The position numbers and the translations under genes are program-made. Shown here one piece after another: positions 4,601 to 64,000 of a stretch of 64,000 nucleotides of DNA. The stretch lies in the sequence record MT533174.1. The stretch is one strand, 5' to 3'. Every line of letters starts with the position of its first letter. Position 1 is the stretch's first letter. This DNA is from Escherichia phage CJ20. The notes under the pieces were generated by a model that saw only the letters and a program-made list of their open reading frames with translations, was not told the DNA's origin and made no database searches.

Positions 4601-4628
4601 AGGGACTCTTCGGAGTCCCTTTTTTATT
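4601..4628 (+). terminator. Rho-independent terminator (AGGGACTCttcgGAGTCCCT + T-run)
   Basis: GC stem with UUCG loop followed by TTTTTT. Confidence 0.6.
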
Positions 4629-4640
4629 TTCCATAAAGGG

Positions 4641-4670
4641 GTTTACAACAGGGTTTGACCAGTGCATAAT
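4641..4670 (+). promoter_or_regulatory. Early-type promoter (GTTTACA, 18 nt, CATAAT) with leader shared with 27807-27836
   Basis: Motif; a 24-nt stretch ATAATGATTCCATACTGAGTTAC is identical at both sites. Confidence 0.5.
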
Positions 4671-5080: not shown

Positions 5081-5084
5081 AACA

Positions 5085-5124
5085 GTTTACTTTGGTACAG
5101 GTTATGATATTATAGACCTGTACC
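5085..5124 (+). promoter_or_regulatory. Early promoter with -10 inside a stem-loop (PeSL-like)
   Basis: GTTTAC 5085-5090, TATTAT 5108-5113, inverted repeat GGTACAGG (5094-5101) / CCTGTACC (5117-5124). Confidence 0.5.
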
Positions 5125-5151
5125 AACAAATGAAAACAACTGGAGAATAAA

Positions 5152-5517
5152 ATGAACTACATCAACTTTGAACGCAAATATGTTTCTAACTGCATCCCAG
5201 GTTCTTCTGAAGTTATTTGCCTGTGGAAACATAAAAATGGTTCAGTGTGCGAAATTGAACAGTATATGACTCCTAACTACGTTTATATGCGATTTGAAAA
5301 TGGTATCACTCTTTCAATCACTATGACCGGTTCAACCTTTAAAATTGCTTTAGATGATGATTTCCGTGAACGTGATTTAGGGACTCATCCTTGCTGGAAT
5401 GGTGTTAATCGCAAGCCGTTGGTTAAAACTTGGATTCGTCATATCCTGGGTAACAAAGCAAAACCTGAACACCTGGAAGCAATCTTTGATGTAGTTCTTA
5501 ATGAATTTGATATCTAA
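5152..5517 (+). CDS. Hypothetical early protein
   Basis: 121-aa ORF; SD CTGGAG; early promoter GTTTAC-17-TATTAT 5085-5113. Confidence 0.55.
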   Translation: MNYINFERKYVSNCIPGSSEVICLWKHKNGSVCEIEQYMTPNYVYMRFENGITLSITMTGSTFKIALDDDFRERDLGTHPCWNGVNRKPLVKTWIRHILGNKAKPEHLEAIFDVVLNEFDI

Positions 5518-55979: not shown

Positions 55980-57767
55980 TTAACCGACCTGTACGTTGCC
56001 ACCAGATACTTTAGCTAATGAACCGCCATCCATATGCACAGTATTTGATGCGTTTAAATTAATGTTCGTCGCTGCAAAATTTAAATCTTGTTCGACATTT
56101 ACATCCATATTTTGAGCATTGATTGTGGCCTTTTGTTTAACGCTTATATCTGCATTCTGGTTGACATTAACTGTTGTATCTTTTTCAACCGTAATATATG
56201 CTTCTTGTTCAACAGTTATATCAGCAGTACCCATAATAACTATTTTAACATTTCCTTTAACAAGCAGAGTTCCATTACCTTCTACAGTTTTGGTTTCATT
56301 CCCTCTGATATGAATACTTTCGTTTCCATCGGTCTGACGACGAACGTTAGCCATATTATAATAGGTTTCATCACCACCAACGTTGACTTTATTATTACCG
56401 CCAACGTAAGTACTCGAATCGCCCTGGGTCATATAATAACCATCAGCCACTGTCTTCGAAGTCTTACGACCATCTGGCGCAACTTCCTCATAGGAACCGG
56501 TCGGATGAATCAGTCGATAACGTTCTTGACCTGGGGTGTTATCGAATTCCTGTACATGCCCGCCTTCGGTTTGCATTGTCTGCACATAAGGATATTCGCC
56601 CTTGTAACTTGATTCTGGCTCTTTAAATAGAATCCTTGTATCTTCTGGAGTCCACGGGTCGGCTGGGTCAGAATTTGTAGGGGCCACAAAGGTTTGAATC
56701 ATCCTATACGAACGCCCTTTAAATTCTATTTCTTTTGGGGCCATAATACCGTATGATTCCATATTACCTGTAAGGATAATCATTGATACCCTTGATGCAC
56801 GCCCTTTAGTTTGGTTAAACCATACTGAATTACGAGCTTCCTCAAATGCCTTTTTATAATCACCTACTAACATTGCGCTAAGCATTCCACGGAATTTAGT
56901 TAATCCGCCTAATCCCATTTGGAAAGCCATGTTTTCAAGAGCCATTTGTCTCGAACGGTTTTCTTTATTATAAACCGGACCAACAACACTGTGTTTGCCT
57001 ATATCATTTTGAACTTTTTTAAGGTCTTCTTGGAATAACTTAGAAGCCTCGTCCATTGATATTGCACCAGGGTTACCTTTAACTTCACGGCCTATTTGAT
57101 TAGATAATATTTTGTTTATCTGATTCATATCTCTAATAGGTTGTGGTGCAATTAAGTGGCCTATACCTATAGTTGGATATCCTTCGGTGTCCCAATATAC
57201 CTTCAGTCGAAGACCTTCATCACGGTGAAGCATATTTTCAATTGTGAAATTAGGGTTATCATCTGGTTTAACCTGACTCAAATCAAGACCATCAGGGTTA
57301 ATACCAAGGTCAAGGTTTGCATCCTGAATTACGTTCGAAGTTGCATCATAACCGACTTCACCGCCACGGTTAAGCGCCGCCGCATCATTACCAACATAAA
57401 GTGGGTATTGCCCTGTGGGGTCAGAGAAACCTTCGTTAGGATTTGCTTTTTGTCTTGAGGCTGAACCATACGTACCAATAACAAGACCGTTGAGCTTCCA
57501 CTTGTCTAAAAAGTGACCATATACTTGAGTACCTGGGACCATACCAGTCATGGCAGTTTGAATCCCAGAAACTGATGCAGATGATGTTGGCATCAATACA
57601 GACATCCAAGGAAGGTCTTCGGTTCTGATACCTTTAACAGGCCCTTGTGCTTTCTCATATGGATGCATACCCCATACACGAACACGAACACGACCTTGCT
57701 GAAGTGGGTCCATTCGGTCTTCGACAACCCCGACGAACCAACTTACATTATCTGACATGTTAATCAT
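55980..57767 (-). CDS. 5: Baseplate hub subunit and tail lysozyme (cell-puncturing spike)
   Basis: 595 aa; lysozyme-domain motif YWDTEGYPTIGIGHLI and repetitive C-terminal beta-helix (VNVxQxxxISV repeats) as in T4 gp5. Confidence 0.93.
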   Translation of the reverse strand: MINMSDNVSWFVGVVEDRMDPLQQGRVRVRVWGMHPYEKAQGPVKGIRTEDLPWMSVLMPTSSASVSGIQTAMTGMVPGTQVYGHFLDKWKLNGLVIGTYGSASRQKANPNEGFSDPTGQYPLYVGNDAAALNRGGEVGYDATSNVIQDANLDLGINPDGLDLSQVKPDDNPNFTIENMLHRDEGLRLKVYWDTEGYPTIGIGHLIAPQPIRDMNQINKILSNQIGREVKGNPGAISMDEASKLFQEDLKKVQNDIGKHSVVGPVYNKENRSRQMALENMAFQMGLGGLTKFRGMLSAMLVGDYKKAFEEARNSVWFNQTKGRASRVSMIILTGNMESYGIMAPKEIEFKGRSYRMIQTFVAPTNSDPADPWTPEDTRILFKEPESSYKGEYPYVQTMQTEGGHVQEFDNTPGQERYRLIHPTGSYEEVAPDGRKTSKTVADGYYMTQGDSSTYVGGNNKVNVGGDETYYNMANVRRQTDGNESIHIRGNETKTVEGNGTLLVKGNVKIVIMGTADITVEQEAYITVEKDTTVNVNQNADISVKQKATINAQNMDVNVEQDLNFAATNINLNASNTVHMDGGSLAKVSGGNVQVG

Positions 57768-60370: not shown

Positions 60371-61043
60371 AATTAATTGCGATTGTGGGTAAAAAACGCA
60401 GTGGTAAAGATACGACTGCTGATTATGTTATTAGTCAAAACGGAACAAAGTGGCAGCTTGCAGGTCCGATTAAAGAAGCGCTTTATAAAGCGTGGATTCG
60501 TCAAGACCTGCCACACAATTTGACCCTGGAAAATTTTGATGGGCAAGGTTATGACCGTGAAAAAACCTTGATAATGAACAACACCGAAGCTTATATTCTT
60601 CTGGTTGATGCTCTTGAATGGTTAAAACAACAATATAATCTTGACCTTCCGAATCCAGATATGGTTCGTAAAATTATTGAATTTCACACACTAAATAATG
60701 TTGAGCCCTGGACGGTTAGACGTTTCATGCAGACCCTTGGAACTGACATCGTTTGTACAGAGTTCGACAGCATGTTTTGGATTAAAACTTTTGCATGCGA
60801 TTATCTTGACAACCTCTATTCTGGATATAAATATTACGTTGTCCCGGATGTTCGCCAAAAGAACGAACTTGATTCGCTTCGGGCGATGGGTGCTACAATA
60901 ATCTTTGTAGAACGCGATGAAGCAAATCATTCTACTGATACACACATTACGGAAGCTGGACTTCCACCACTAGCTAGTGACATTGTTATTAAAAACGATG
61001 GCACACTCGATGAACTTTTTGATAAAATTAATAAGGTAATATA

Positions 61044-61044
<1 letters not shown>
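60367..61044 (+). CDS. 1: Deoxynucleoside monophosphate kinase
   Basis: 225 aa; P-loop GKKRSGKDT; position upstream of 57A. Confidence 0.85.
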
Positions 61045-61728
<684 letters not shown>

Positions 61729-61729
<1 letters not shown>

Positions 61730-61768
61730 TGTACAAATGAGTGTAGGTGCAGTATTATGCTCCTACAC
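61729..61768 (+). promoter_or_regulatory. Promoter/stem-loop cassette (GTGTAC, 18 nt, TATTAT in hairpin loop) upstream of first IP-like gene
   Basis: Inverted repeat GTGTAGG (61741-61747) / CCTACAC (61762-61768). Confidence 0.45.
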
Positions 61769-61789
61769 CAACGAACAAACGGAGTTAAA

Positions 61790-62122
61790 ATGAACATAAA
61801 GACTTACAACGAGTTTTTAGCCGAATCCGCCATCAATGAGACCAAATCAATTGATGATAGTGAAGGCTCTCTGAAATTTGGTTTAACCAAAAATGCAGAT
61901 GGTGTTTTCTTTCAGATTGGTAATGAACGTTTTCAAACGTCCAAATATTCCAAAGCTGCAGTTGAAGCTGTCCTGAAATCTGGTGGCAAGTGGAAAGGCA
62001 AAGAAGGTACTAAAGAAATTGGCATCGCTGTTGACGGTGGTATGGCTTATTTTAAAATTGGCGATGAACAATTTATTATGTCTGCTCGCGGACGTAAAGA
62101 ACTGGCAAAACTTTATAAATAA
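61790..62122 (+). CDS. Internal-protein-like (IP) protein with N-terminal capsid-targeting sequence
   Basis: N-terminus MNIKTYNEFLAE resembles T4 IP capsid-targeting sequence MKTYQEFIAE; SD GGAG at 61781; start chosen inside track ORF 61757. Confidence 0.6.
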   Translation: MNIKTYNEFLAESAINETKSIDDSEGSLKFGLTKNADGVFFQIGNERFQTSKYSKAAVEAVLKSGGKWKGKEGTKEIGIAVDGGMAYFKIGDEQFIMSARGRKELAKLYK

Positions 62123-62130
62123 GGTTTCTT

Positions 62131-62403
62131 ATGAAAACTTTCAATGAATTTTTCAACGAGTCCCAACTGAATGAAGAAGTAAAAATTAGTAAAGCAGTCA
62201 AAGCTATGATTGACAATATCAATCACCTGTACAGCATTGACTTGACTGACCATATAACAATTGGTAACAAACGCAACTTTTTCGCGTTTGACATCTCTGA
62301 ACTTGACCAGAACCAAATTAATAACATTGAGCGTTTTGCCAATGACAAGGGTCTCCGCCATGAGACAGCTGGTTATAAAAAATATGCAATTTATCTAAAA
62401 TAG
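62131..62403 (+). CDS. Internal-protein-like (IP) protein with capsid-targeting sequence
   Basis: N-terminus MKTFNEFFNE. Confidence 0.6.
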   Translation: MKTFNEFFNESQLNEEVKISKAVKAMIDNINHLYSIDLTDHITIGNKRNFFAFDISELDQNQINNIERFANDKGLRHETAGYKKYAIYLK

Positions 62404-62411
62404 GATTTCAA

Positions 62412-62711
62412 ATGCAAACTTTTCATGAATTTTTGGTAGAAAACAATTACCTGGCGGAAGCAAAAACCTGGCCTCTGGGTCTTCAGAAGAAAAACACCTA
62501 TAAATGGGTTGACTTCAAAGGTAAAGGCGACGCTGAAGACTTTGACCAGCTGCGTAAAAATGGTTATACCTTCCTTGACTCTAACTATAACAAAATTACC
62601 TCTTTTAGTCAGAAGTCAAGCATTGCCTTCATTGAAACTGGTAAGAACTCTCCTAAAGATATTTCTGACGACTTCGCCGCTTATGGTGTAATTCGTGGTT
62701 CAAAAATGTAA
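62412..62711 (+). CDS. Internal-protein-like (IP) protein with capsid-targeting sequence
   Basis: N-terminus MQTFHEFLVE. Confidence 0.6.
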   Translation: MQTFHEFLVENNYLAEAKTWPLGLQKKNTYKWVDFKGKGDAEDFDQLRKNGYTFLDSNYNKITSFSQKSSIAFIETGKNSPKDISDDFAAYGVIRGSKM

Positions 62712-62749
62712 TGTACATGATGGGATAGTTGCAGTATAATTATCCCATC
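62711..62749 (+). promoter_or_regulatory. Promoter/stem-loop cassette (ATGTAC, 18 nt, TATAAT in hairpin loop)
   Basis: Inverted repeat GATGGGATA (62719-62727) / TATCCCATC (62741-62749). Confidence 0.45.
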
Positions 62750-62766
62750 AACTACTGGAGCTACTA

Positions 62767-63045
62767 ATGAAAACTTATCAAGAATTTATTAACGAATCAA
62801 TTAGTCACCCGGATATGCTGGAAGACCTGAAAGGACATCTGATGGTTAAGGCCAAACCGGTTGATGGTGGCGCATTTGAGTTGTTTCTTGTTAAAGGCGA
62901 AAACGGTCCTGATAACAAGAAAGTTTCAGCAATGATGTTGACTAAAGGTTACAAAGTCAGTTCTTCCTGGAATGCTCCATTCACTTACGCGGTAAGCCCT
63001 CGTGAACTGAAAAAAGTTAAAGCTGGACAATATACAAAAATTTAG
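62767..63045 (+). CDS. Internal-protein-like (IP) protein with capsid-targeting sequence
   Basis: N-terminus MKTYQEFINE, nearly identical to the T4 IP targeting sequence. Confidence 0.65.
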   Translation: MKTYQEFINESISHPDMLEDLKGHLMVKAKPVDGGAFELFLVKGENGPDNKKVSAMMLTKGYKVSSSWNAPFTYAVSPRELKKVKAGQYTKI

Positions 63046-63083
63046 TGTACGTGATGGGATAGTTGTAGTATGATTATCTCATC
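63045..63083 (+). promoter_or_regulatory. Promoter/stem-loop cassette (GTGTAC, 18 nt, TATGAT in hairpin loop)
   Basis: Inverted repeat GATGGGATA (63053-63061) / TATCTCATC (63075-63083), one mismatch. Confidence 0.45.
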
Positions 63084-63102
63084 AACTACTGAGGAGAATA
63101 AA

Positions 63103-63288
63103 ATGAAACGTTGCGAATTAATTAGAAATGTTACTGCCCTTGTTGCTGTTACCACTTTTGGTTTTAGCATGTTTGCTGGCTTTATGTTGAATATGCTTTC
63201 AACTTCTGAGAATATAATCTCTTTAGTAGTTGCATTTTTAATTGGTTCAATCTCTTTCGTTATGGATAAAATCTCTAAAGGTGAGTAA
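63103..63288 (+). CDS. Small hydrophobic (two predicted TM helices) protein
   Basis: 61 aa from ATG 63103 with SD GAGGAG; hydrophobic stretches LVAVTTFGFSMFAGFML and IISLVVAFLIGSISFV. Confidence 0.4.
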   Translation: MKRCELIRNVTALVAVTTFGFSMFAGFMLNMLSTSENIISLVVAFLIGSISFVMDKISKGE

Positions 63289-63289
63289 A

Positions 63290-63670
63290 ATGTATAAAGT
63301 GTATGCGGATTATCAGGCAAATCCATCTGAAAAACCAGATTGCCAAATTGGGTGGGCGCATGACACCCTGCTTGAAGCGGTAGATGAAGCTCAAAAATTA
63401 GGGTATAGTTATGTGGATATTGTTCAACCTGGTGGAACAGTTATTACTCTTGAAGAATTCAAGAATATCAAAACAAACTTTTTACTCTTTGCTGGCGATA
63501 ACTATTATCCTCGTGGCGGTTATGCTGACTTAATTGCAAAAGCGGCGACTGAAGATGAACTGCGTGATATCATTAAAGAAAACGAGAAGAAGCCTTGTTA
63601 TGGTTCCAACCGTTTTGACTGGTGGCAGATTGTTAATGCCAATACACATACTATTGTTGATGAGGGCTGA
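63290..63670 (+). CDS. Hypothetical protein
   Basis: 126 aa from ATG 63290 (SD AAGGTGAG); track start 63242 is TTG. Confidence 0.5.
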   Translation: MYKVYADYQANPSEKPDCQIGWAHDTLLEAVDEAQKLGYSYVDIVQPGGTVITLEEFKNIKTNFLLFAGDNYYPRGGYADLIAKAATEDELRDIIKENEKKPCYGSNRFDWWQIVNANTHTIVDEG

Positions 63671-63672
63671 TT

Positions 63673-64000
63673 ATGAATATTAAATTTGGTCAGACCATCC
63701 CTAAAGGTTATGTGATTGAAATTGAAACCTGGGAAAATGATGGTGACAACTATAAAACCCAAACGGTATTTGGCGTAGAAGAACAAGAAATCCAACAGTA
63801 CAAATATATCCTGGAACTTTTCCATGGTTCACATTGTAACAACCGCAATAAATGTGGTAATTCAGAATGGGATGTGGTTAAACACTTGGTTATCGCCCAC
63901 ATTGCATCTGGTGTAAAATCTGGGCAGTTGACTTATGAATTTTTGGATAAAGTTCTTGGTATTGCAGATTTGGAAGCCTTGTTGAATGACGATGATGAAG
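63673..64000 (+). CDS. Hypothetical protein, 5' fragment (continues beyond window)
   Basis: ATG 63673 right after previous stop; open to window end; Cys/His cluster HGSHCNNRNKCGNSEW. Confidence 0.45.
   Translation, partial: MNIKFGQTIPKGYVIEIETWENDGDNYKTQTVFGVEEQEIQQYKYILELFHGSHCNNRNKCGNSEWDVVKHLVIAHIASGVKSGQLTYEFLDKVLGIADLEALLNDDDE

Follow-up and report, generated by a model that had tools for sequence, protein, structure and literature searches.

PeSL elements have been defined as units of hyperplastic regions in which the stop codon of an upstream gene is followed by an early promoter, a stem-loop, a Shine-Dalgarno (SD) sequence and a start codon (Arbiol 2010, PMC2839356). In the phages RB49 and phi1, the commonest subclasses have the stem-loop between the two promoter boxes or overlapping the -10, and promoter, terminator and mini-circle activities have been measured (PMC2839356). 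PeSLs were later extended to T4 and PST, with the consensus TTTACW-N17-TAYWAT and with degraded 'half' PeSLs near indels (Comeau 2014, PMC4122927). Repoila et al. (1994) had already described elements at two T-even internal-protein (IP) loci which, as summarized in the later papers, pair T4 early promoters with stems that are AT-rich, vary in size and lack polyG/polyC, and which were proposed to shuffle the IP genes (PMC2839356, PMC4122927). Arbiol et al. term these T-even elements 'PeSL-like', as analogues and not homologues (PMC2839356).

Here we describe three elements, A, B and C, at an IP locus, for which the best explanation, taken whole, is that they are T-even-type PeSL-like regulatory cassettes (probability roughly 0.85). 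A literature search yielded no description of these elements specifically in VR7/SP18-like phages. Because the concept has been published since 1994 and 2010, the present results are a confirmation and an extension rather than a discovery.

Organization of the IP locus

The window, that is, the whole stretch of 64,000 nucleotides analysed, comes from a VR7/VR20/SP18-like T-even phage of Gaprivervirus; the Gaprivervirus phages P896, VR20, VR7 and SP18 share 92-98% identity with the 3 kb around the elements. The local gene order was obtained by annotation transfer from VR20, VR7 and P896 together with the list of open reading frames (ORFs), and the IP-like genes from ORF translation:

Gene 1, first in the local order, upstream of 57A
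61044-61274: 57A
61274-61729, plus strand: 57B
61790-62122, plus strand: IP-like gene 1
62131-62403, plus strand: IP-like gene 2
62412-62711, plus strand: IP-like gene 3
62767-63045, plus strand: IP-like gene 4
63103-63288, plus strand: trna.4 (annotation transfer), followed by trna.3
62117-62153, 62398-62434 and 62753-62789, plus strand: three copies of a 37-nt repeat of SD, ATG and capsid-targeting leader (repeat family D1)

Translation revealed an MKT(Y/F)xEF-type leader at the start of all four IP-like genes (61790-63045, plus strand). Two of them were assigned to PHROG families of the 'internal head protein' type (E 1.7e-56 and 2e-21) and the other two to PHROG families of unknown function; the annotation of the IP-like genes in VR7 and VR20 is ip9 or internal head protein. 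Besides the elements described below, the SD/leader repeat is the other kind of portable homology at the IP locus.

Architecture of elements A, B and C

Three junctions of this locus, and a fourth near the other end of the window, share a common architecture:

61727-61792, plus strand: element A, at the junction of 57B and the IP-like ORF (from motif, RNA fold and relatives); stop TAG 61727-61729, GTGTAC 61729-61734, -35 TGTACA 61730-61735, 5' arm GTGTAGG 61741-61747, -10 TATTAT 61753-61758, 3' arm CCTACAC 61762-61768, predicted start ~61765, SD GGAG 61781-61784, ATG 61790
62701-62769, plus strand: element B, between IP-like genes 3 and 4 (from motif, RNA fold and repeat D2); A-tract CAAAAAT 62701-62707, stop TAA 62709-62711, ATGTAC 62711-62716, -35 TGTACA 62712-62717, 5' arm GATGGGATA 62719-62727, -10 TATAAT 62735-62740, 3' arm TATCCCATC 62741-62749, predicted start ~62747, then CAACTACTG, SD GGAG 62757-62760, ATG 62767
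63035-63105, plus strand: element C, between IP-like gene 4 and trna.4 (from motif, RNA fold and hybrid structure); stop TAG 63043-63045, GTGTAC 63045-63050, -35 TGTACG 63046-63051, 5' arm GATGGGATA 63053-63061, -10 TATGAT 63069-63074, 3' arm TATCTCATC 63075-63083 with one G.T (in RNA, G.U) pair, predicted start ~63081, SD GAGGAG 63091-63096, ATG 63103
5083-5154, plus strand: element at the 30.8>30.7 junction (the 5085 element; from RNA fold and relatives); GTTTAC 5085-5090, -35 TTTACT 5086-5091, arms GGTACAGG 5094-5101 and CCTGTACC 5117-5124, -10 TATTAT 5108-5113, predicted start ~5120, ATG 5152

In the sigma-70 register, the three IP-locus elements read TGTAC(A/G)-N17 followed by TATTAT, TATAAT and TATGAT, respectively. 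Taken purely as sequence matches, A (TGTACA-17-TATTAT) agrees at 9/12 and B (TGTACA-17-TATAAT) at 10/12, and C reads TGTACG-17-TATGAT. In each of them, the upstream gene ends in a stop codon that overlaps or directly adjoins the -35, and the intergenic lengths are 60, 55 and 57 nt. The inverted repeat that flanks the -10 is 7 bp long in A and 9 bp long in B and C. Elements B and C form a 57-nt direct repeat (62701-62757 and 63035-63091; repeat D2) of 89% identity, which starts with a UP-element-like A-tract, still within the final codons of the preceding genes, and ends at CAACTACTG directly before the SD. The upstream ORF ends in CAAAAAT(G/T)TA in B and C, and the sequence upstream of A, GGCGGATTTAAAG, is weakly A/T-rich. 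Element A is built like B and C, with a different stem sequence; the bases after the 3' arm are AACTACTG.

An earlier note had placed three elements at 61729, 62711 and 63045 and a similar arrangement of GTTTAC, arms and TATTAT at 5085-5124, and all four were found there. Its general layout, [GA]TGTAC-18 nt-TAT[AT]AT, describes A and B but not C, the -10 of which is TATGAT. The motif scan that it had suggested, run as RTGTAC-N18-TATDAT, hit the window three times, each time on the plus strand, against 0.09 expected, and none of 100 shuffles reached three. Two other promoter-like sites, 1040 and 4642, were weighed as candidate members and rejected, as neither has a hairpin enclosing the -10 and the latter follows a true terminator. 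The region 4601-4670 itself consists of a true terminator and then a promoter.

Comparison with known systems

In their anatomy, A, B and C fit the published PeSL definition, as analogues and not as sequence homologues of the RB49 elements. They share with the RB49/phi1 PeSLs the layout, the repetition in hyperplastic regions, the indels at elements and the chimeric elements in recombinants (PMC2839356). However, the RB49/phi1 elements have near-perfect TTGACA-N17-TATAAT promoters and GGGG...CCCC stems, and there is no sequence homology between the two sets. Held against the strict RB49/phi1 features (TTGACA and a polyG/polyC stem), the present elements carry TGTACA as -35 and stems such as GTGTAGG and GATGGGATA; of the broad PeSL features, they display a sigma-70-type promoter match, a stem-loop, the stop-to-start layout, repetition in a hyperplastic region, and indel endpoints with chimeras.

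The PeSLs of PST and T4 are closer in that they belong to the T-even subgroup, their consensus lies one base from TGTACA-N17-TATAAT, and half elements occur likewise (PMC4122927), here in VR7 and as the terminator-only derivative described below. The PST stem-loops are depicted just upstream of the promoter (PMC4122927), whereas A, B, C and the 5085 element each have the -10 enclosed by the stem; the region 4601-4670 of the window is one element of the PST layout. As far as the later summaries of Repoila et al. (1994) allow comparison, those elements occupy the same locus, from 57B to the tRNA region, next to internal-protein ORFs with a conserved leader, but differ in the -35, which in Gaprivervirus is mostly GTGTACA rather than GTTTACA. 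A further likeness is to integron attC sites and gene cassettes, where short imperfect inverted repeats also delimit single-gene, promoter-adjacent cassettes whose gain and loss occur in whole units; unlike integrons, the present locus has no annotated integrase, its crossover points vary within the core, and each cassette carries a promoter.

Folding and conservation of the hairpins

RNA folding, proposed in the earlier note as a check, predicted stable hairpins of -16.5 kcal/mol (z -2.2) for A, -19.5 kcal/mol (z -3.7) for B, -17.4 kcal/mol (z -3.2) for C and -18.8 kcal/mol (z -4.35) for the 5085 element. The minimum free energies were further compared with those of constrained shuffles, in which the -35 and -10 hexamers were fixed while the spacer and downstream bases were shuffled; p values ranged from 0.002 to 0.006 over the tested elements (A 0.006, B 0.004, the 5085 element 0.002), with 11-12 pairs enclosing the -10. 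That the -10 sits in the loop of a 7-9 bp repeat, as the earlier note had it, holds for Watson-Crick pairing; in RNA, the helices of B and C run via G.U pairs into the -10, giving 14-15 bp with a loop of 3-5 nt.

Comparison of relatives revealed conserved stems with variable loops. The stem of element A (14 bases) is invariant across 15 Gaprivervirus relatives, apart from two wobble-compatible changes in one genome, and the loop varies at no fewer than seven positions. The 30.8>30.7 stem is the same in T4, VR5 (Dhakavirus) and mogra (Mosigvirus), that is, in four genera including the window, while its loop and flanks drift. In the B-type family, those arm variants that recur in several genomes (C to T, on the 3' side) allow G.U pairing, and the three pair-breaking arm mutations are each singletons. 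Covariation in this family (28 sequences) did not exceed that of shuffles (97.8% paired, one double change, 158/500 shuffles as high), a comparison that is uninformative because the stem hardly varies. IMG/VR, scanned without constraint on the stem positions (TGTAC-N18-TATAAT-N9-AACTACTG), yielded four loci, which added no new diversity for covariation, and the Rfam 15 covariance models gave no match at E <= 1 across 61000-64000.

One could regard the hairpins primarily as Rho-independent terminators of the upstream genes, with the promoter overlap as incidental compaction. The stem-loop of an RB49 PeSL indeed cut lacZ expression like the rrnB T1 terminator (PMC2839356), a T-run terminator-only derivative exists in TH44, EAWsc9 and ECML359 (see below), and the terminator-then-promoter arrangement at 4601-4670 is a true one within the window. 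However, the hairpins of A, B, C and the 5085 element are not followed by a T-run (U-tract) and the terminator scan detected none of the four. A classical, canonical intrinsic terminator is therefore unsupported at these sites, which makes this reading extremely unlikely.

Alternatively, the inverted repeat might act as DNA, either as an operator for a dimeric protein, as a cruciform cut by endonuclease VII, or as an attC-like recombinase site. As single-stranded DNA, A, B and the 5085 element do fold non-randomly (-8.9 to -10.4 kcal/mol, z -3.4 to -5), conservation of the 30.8>30.7 stem goes beyond pairing to the sequence itself, and a recombination protein that binds the stem was speculated upon by Arbiol et al. 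(PMC2839356). Against this, the DNA fold of element C is poor (z -1.6), the DNA loops of 13-14 nt disfavour cruciform extrusion, and the arm variants shared by several genomes preserve G.U pairing. Two further lines of evidence, from the arm sequences and from the crossover points, are given in the following sections and leave a DNA-level role very unlikely.

Hairpins around the -10 across the VR7 genome

To learn whether the architecture is general, the early strand of VR7 (119 kb) was scanned for T[TG][TG]AC-N16-18-TATAAT-like sites, of which 29 were found. At 12 of the 29, at least 6 pairs enclose the -10 and constrained shuffles give p <= 0.02, compared to 2 of 150 random 45-mers that pass. 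Enclosure of the -10 by a hairpin is thus a general property of this lineage. The binomial probability of 1.5e-13 assumes 29 independent sites and overstates the significance, because several sites are paralogous repeat copies. The hairpins have at least six unrelated stem sequences, with arms such as GTGTAGG, GATGGGATA, GATAGGGT, TGGGGTC, CAGTATGGAGTC and GGTACAGG. With arms that differ completely from one element to the next, one DNA-binding protein of fixed sequence specificity is unlikely to be their cause, which speaks against the operator form of a DNA-level role. Many promoter-like sites of VR7 have no hairpin, and degraded 'half' elements are present as well.

Five paralogous VR7 promoters showed compensatory change: both sides changed in 3/7 pairs with 94% of the cells paired, and the covariation score was 0.457, compared to 0.261 for shuffles (4/500 reach the observed score) and at most 0.21 for slid controls. 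At 13/15 hairpin sites, but also at 11/17 hairpin-less sites, the fold of the sense strand is better than that of the antisense; since the latter show the asymmetry too, it is a weak argument for an RNA-level role.

These data bear on another alternative, namely that the elements are ordinary early promoters with an accidental, functionless inverted repeat, and that selection keeps those recombinants which were cut between genes. In its favour, good promoter matches without a hairpin exist (1040, 4642 and many VR7 sites), and covariation in the B-type family is not significant. On the other side stand the frequency of -10-enclosing hairpins with unrelated arms in VR7 relative to the controls, the compensatory changes among the paralogues, the invariant stem and variable loop of element A in 15 genomes, and the 30.8>30.7 stem that four genera share despite drifting loop and flanks. 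The breakpoints described below also bear on this alternative, which on the whole we regard as quite unlikely, though less so than the DNA-level and terminator readings.

Cassette orders, breakpoints and mosaic copies

The segment from 57B to trna.4 was compared among 17 genomes, that is, the window and 16 related loci, by BLASTN of the window against each locus. Seven cassettes (o156, ip9, o154, o153, ip5, ip6 and ipX) occur in eight different orders. The ends of collinear BLASTN homology define the following IP-cassette breakpoints:

61737: in element A
62712-62730 and 62798: at element B
63036-63108 (overlapping homology): at element C
62425-62441: in the SD and capsid-targeting leader of the third IP gene (leader-repeat copy 2)

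Element B is the breakpoint in TH44, EAWsc9, ECML359 and TH22. Divergence among relatives is seen at 63666 and 63313-63488 as well, in and around trna.3, a region with no element. The earlier note had suggested that modular shuffling, as proposed for PeSL elements, would explain the variable IP cassette, and had named a correlation with breakpoints in related genomes as one part of the test. With the IP-cassette breakpoints in one of the three elements or in the leader repeat, and with chimeric copies, the outcome of this part favours shuffling; the exceptions are 62425-62441, 63666 and 63313-63488. The promoter-less junctions among them, 62425-62441 and 63666, are what ordinary promoters plus selection would also predict.

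Further analysis of 35 B-type copies, of which each genome has 2-4 at the IP locus, revealed their mosaic nature. VR20, VR7 and TH57 possess an extra ip6 cassette with one copy of the element on each side. Element C of the window is a hybrid of these two copies, the left half being that of the o153>ip6 copy (TAGTGTACGTGATGGGATA...) and the right half that of the ip6>trna.4 copy (...CAACTACTGAGGAGAATAAAATG). Such seamless hybrids are expected from homologous exchange in the core, not from illegitimate joins followed by selection, which counts against the promoters-only alternative. More generally, the left end of a B-type copy follows the upstream gene, with TAATGTACA after o154, TAGTGTACGTG after o153, TAA(A)GTATAC after ip5 and TAAGTGTACTTTT after ip6, and the right end follows the downstream gene, with a core that is common to the copies. 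Loop variants, e.g. ...TGTAGTATGAT, are re-assorted among several contexts, so the crossover points must vary inside the shared core. Variable crossover points in turn indicate homologous exchange or gene conversion and not site-specific recombination. Together with the annotation of VR20, VR7 and P896, in which no integrase-like gene is found at the IP locus, this argues against an attC-like recombinase site.

In addition, TH44, EAWsc9 and ECML359 contain a derivative in which the hairpin is kept and tightened (GGGGATAATTATCCCC), TTTTTAT has been gained and the promoter has been lost. This promoter-less derivative points to a 3'-end or terminator role of the hairpin.

Proposed mechanism of the cassettes

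We propose that each PeSL-like cassette fills an intergenic space of 55-60 nt with five parts. The A-rich stretch and stop codon of the upstream gene would be followed by a putative early promoter for the host sigma-70 of the lineage flavour (G)TGTACA-N17-TATAAT, then by the inverted repeat, whose 5' arm lies in the spacer and whose 3' arm covers the predicted transcription start, and finally by an apparently unstructured leader with a GGAG-type SD and by the start codon. RNA polymerase would start ~7 nt after the -10 (~61765, 62747 and 63081), inside the 3' arm. Because the transcript would begin there, the mRNA of the element itself should lack the hairpin; such a transcript, with its short leader and GGAG or GAGGAG SD, may provide separate early expression for each cassette. 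The full hairpin would form only in read-through transcripts from upstream, where it most likely serves as an attenuator or 3'-end barrier that insulates the cassettes from each other. This is the best inference on account of the reporter activity of the RB49 PeSL and of the derivative in TH44, EAWsc9 and ECML359.

At the DNA level, the core of 35-57 nt is repeated between non-homologous genes and could therefore offer the recombination system of the phage itself a portable stretch of homology. A crossover in the core would insert, delete or replace a whole cassette, leaving the expression signals intact. For instance, recombination between B and C is predicted to release a 334-bp circle carrying 62767-63045.

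A variant of this scheme, which we consider unlikely but less so than the rivals above, holds that the hairpin rather than the promoter is the selected core of the element and acts in RNA. The GGAG SD is a target of the RegB endoribonuclease, and cleavage at this site would leave the upstream mRNA with a protective 3' hairpin. In read-through transcripts, the hairpin lies 8-10 nt upstream of the GGAG SD; regB is present in VR7. The G.U-compatible arm variants in several genomes, the pair-breakers confined to singletons and the promoter-less derivative with its tightened hairpin would fit such a core. Were it true, the cassettes would be insulated both transcriptionally and post-transcriptionally.

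Implications

The IP locus offers an unusually clean natural record of the mechanism proposed for such elements, with seamless hybrids, left and right ends that follow the adjacent genes, and loop variants that have been re-assorted. The present analysis adds a comparative case at the IP locus, the frequency of -10 hairpins in one T-even genus, where they mark ~40% of the early-promoter-like sites, the covariation among paralogues, and a promoter-to-terminator derivative. Internal proteins are anti-defence effectors that are injected into the host, and for this reason the way in which IP genes are swapped bears on the evolution of host range in T4-like phages.

Promoter-like elements and their apparent derivatives

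Analysis of the VR7 early strand revealed 29 promoter-like sites, at which (A/T)GTGTACA is the predominant early -35 box of the genus Gaprivervirus; the core TGTAC is present at 16 of the 29 sites, compared to 10 with the T4-type TTTAC. Three further arrangements of promoters and hairpins are as follows.

Window 4601-4670, + strand: terminator and promoter, in which a canonical terminator AGGGACTCTTCGGAGTCCCT with a T-run is directly followed by TTTACA-N17-CATAAT
L004 4216-4267 (TH44), L005 4220-4270 (EAWsc9) and L006 4220-4270 (ECML359): o154>ip5 junction, GGGGATAATTATCCCC then TTTTTAT
VR7 record 54966, 57053 and 20761 (L017/L018): "half elements", promoter-like sites with a single arm of the B-type or a related hairpin

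The element at 4601-4670 resembles the promoter-early stem-loops (PeSLs) of phage PST in placing the stem-loop upstream of the promoter, and an equal arrangement separates the genes 30.9 and 30.8 in T4, VR5 and mogra. The junction between the cassette genes o154 and ip5 of TH44, EAWsc9 and ECML359 looks like a B-type element (a copy of the element B/C family) that has lost both its -35 and -10 boxes and now forms a plain terminator. The half elements of VR7 would be the expected product of a crossover between different elements within the shared -10. The site at 57053 is located in the second internal-protein (IP) locus of VR7 (ip7/ip10).

Divergence points of related phages

SP18 and TH22 diverge from the window within trna.3 (63313-63488), and VR7, VR26 and RZ at the boundary between trna.3 and the next gene (63666-63676). 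A promoter/stem-loop element is absent at both divergence points, indicating that cassette exchange here is not always linked to these elements.

Annotation and transcription around the IP cluster

The 57B homologue (window 61274-61729) is annotated as "RNA ligase" in most records, as "anti-CBASS protein Acb1" in EAWsc9 and as "cyclic nucleotide phosphodiesterase" in UPEC07.

The -10 variant TATGAT of element C, a promoter-hairpin element at 63035-63105, gives rise to an in-frame ATG at 63070, the equivalent of which is the annotated trna.4 start in P896 (L003 5071). This ATG has no SD sequence and lies 5' of the predicted transcription start; the ATG at 63103 is preceded by GAGGAG and is likely the true start of trna.4.

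A copy of the T4 late-promoter motif TATAAATA sits at 62114-62121 (+), 10 nt 5' of the ip9 start (62131), and overlaps the 3' end of the preceding ORF. A motif scan of the whole window counted 21 copies of TATAAATA against 4.4 expected, the majority on the late (-) strand. The IP cluster, four internal-protein-like genes at 61790-63045, is probably transcribed late in addition to early.
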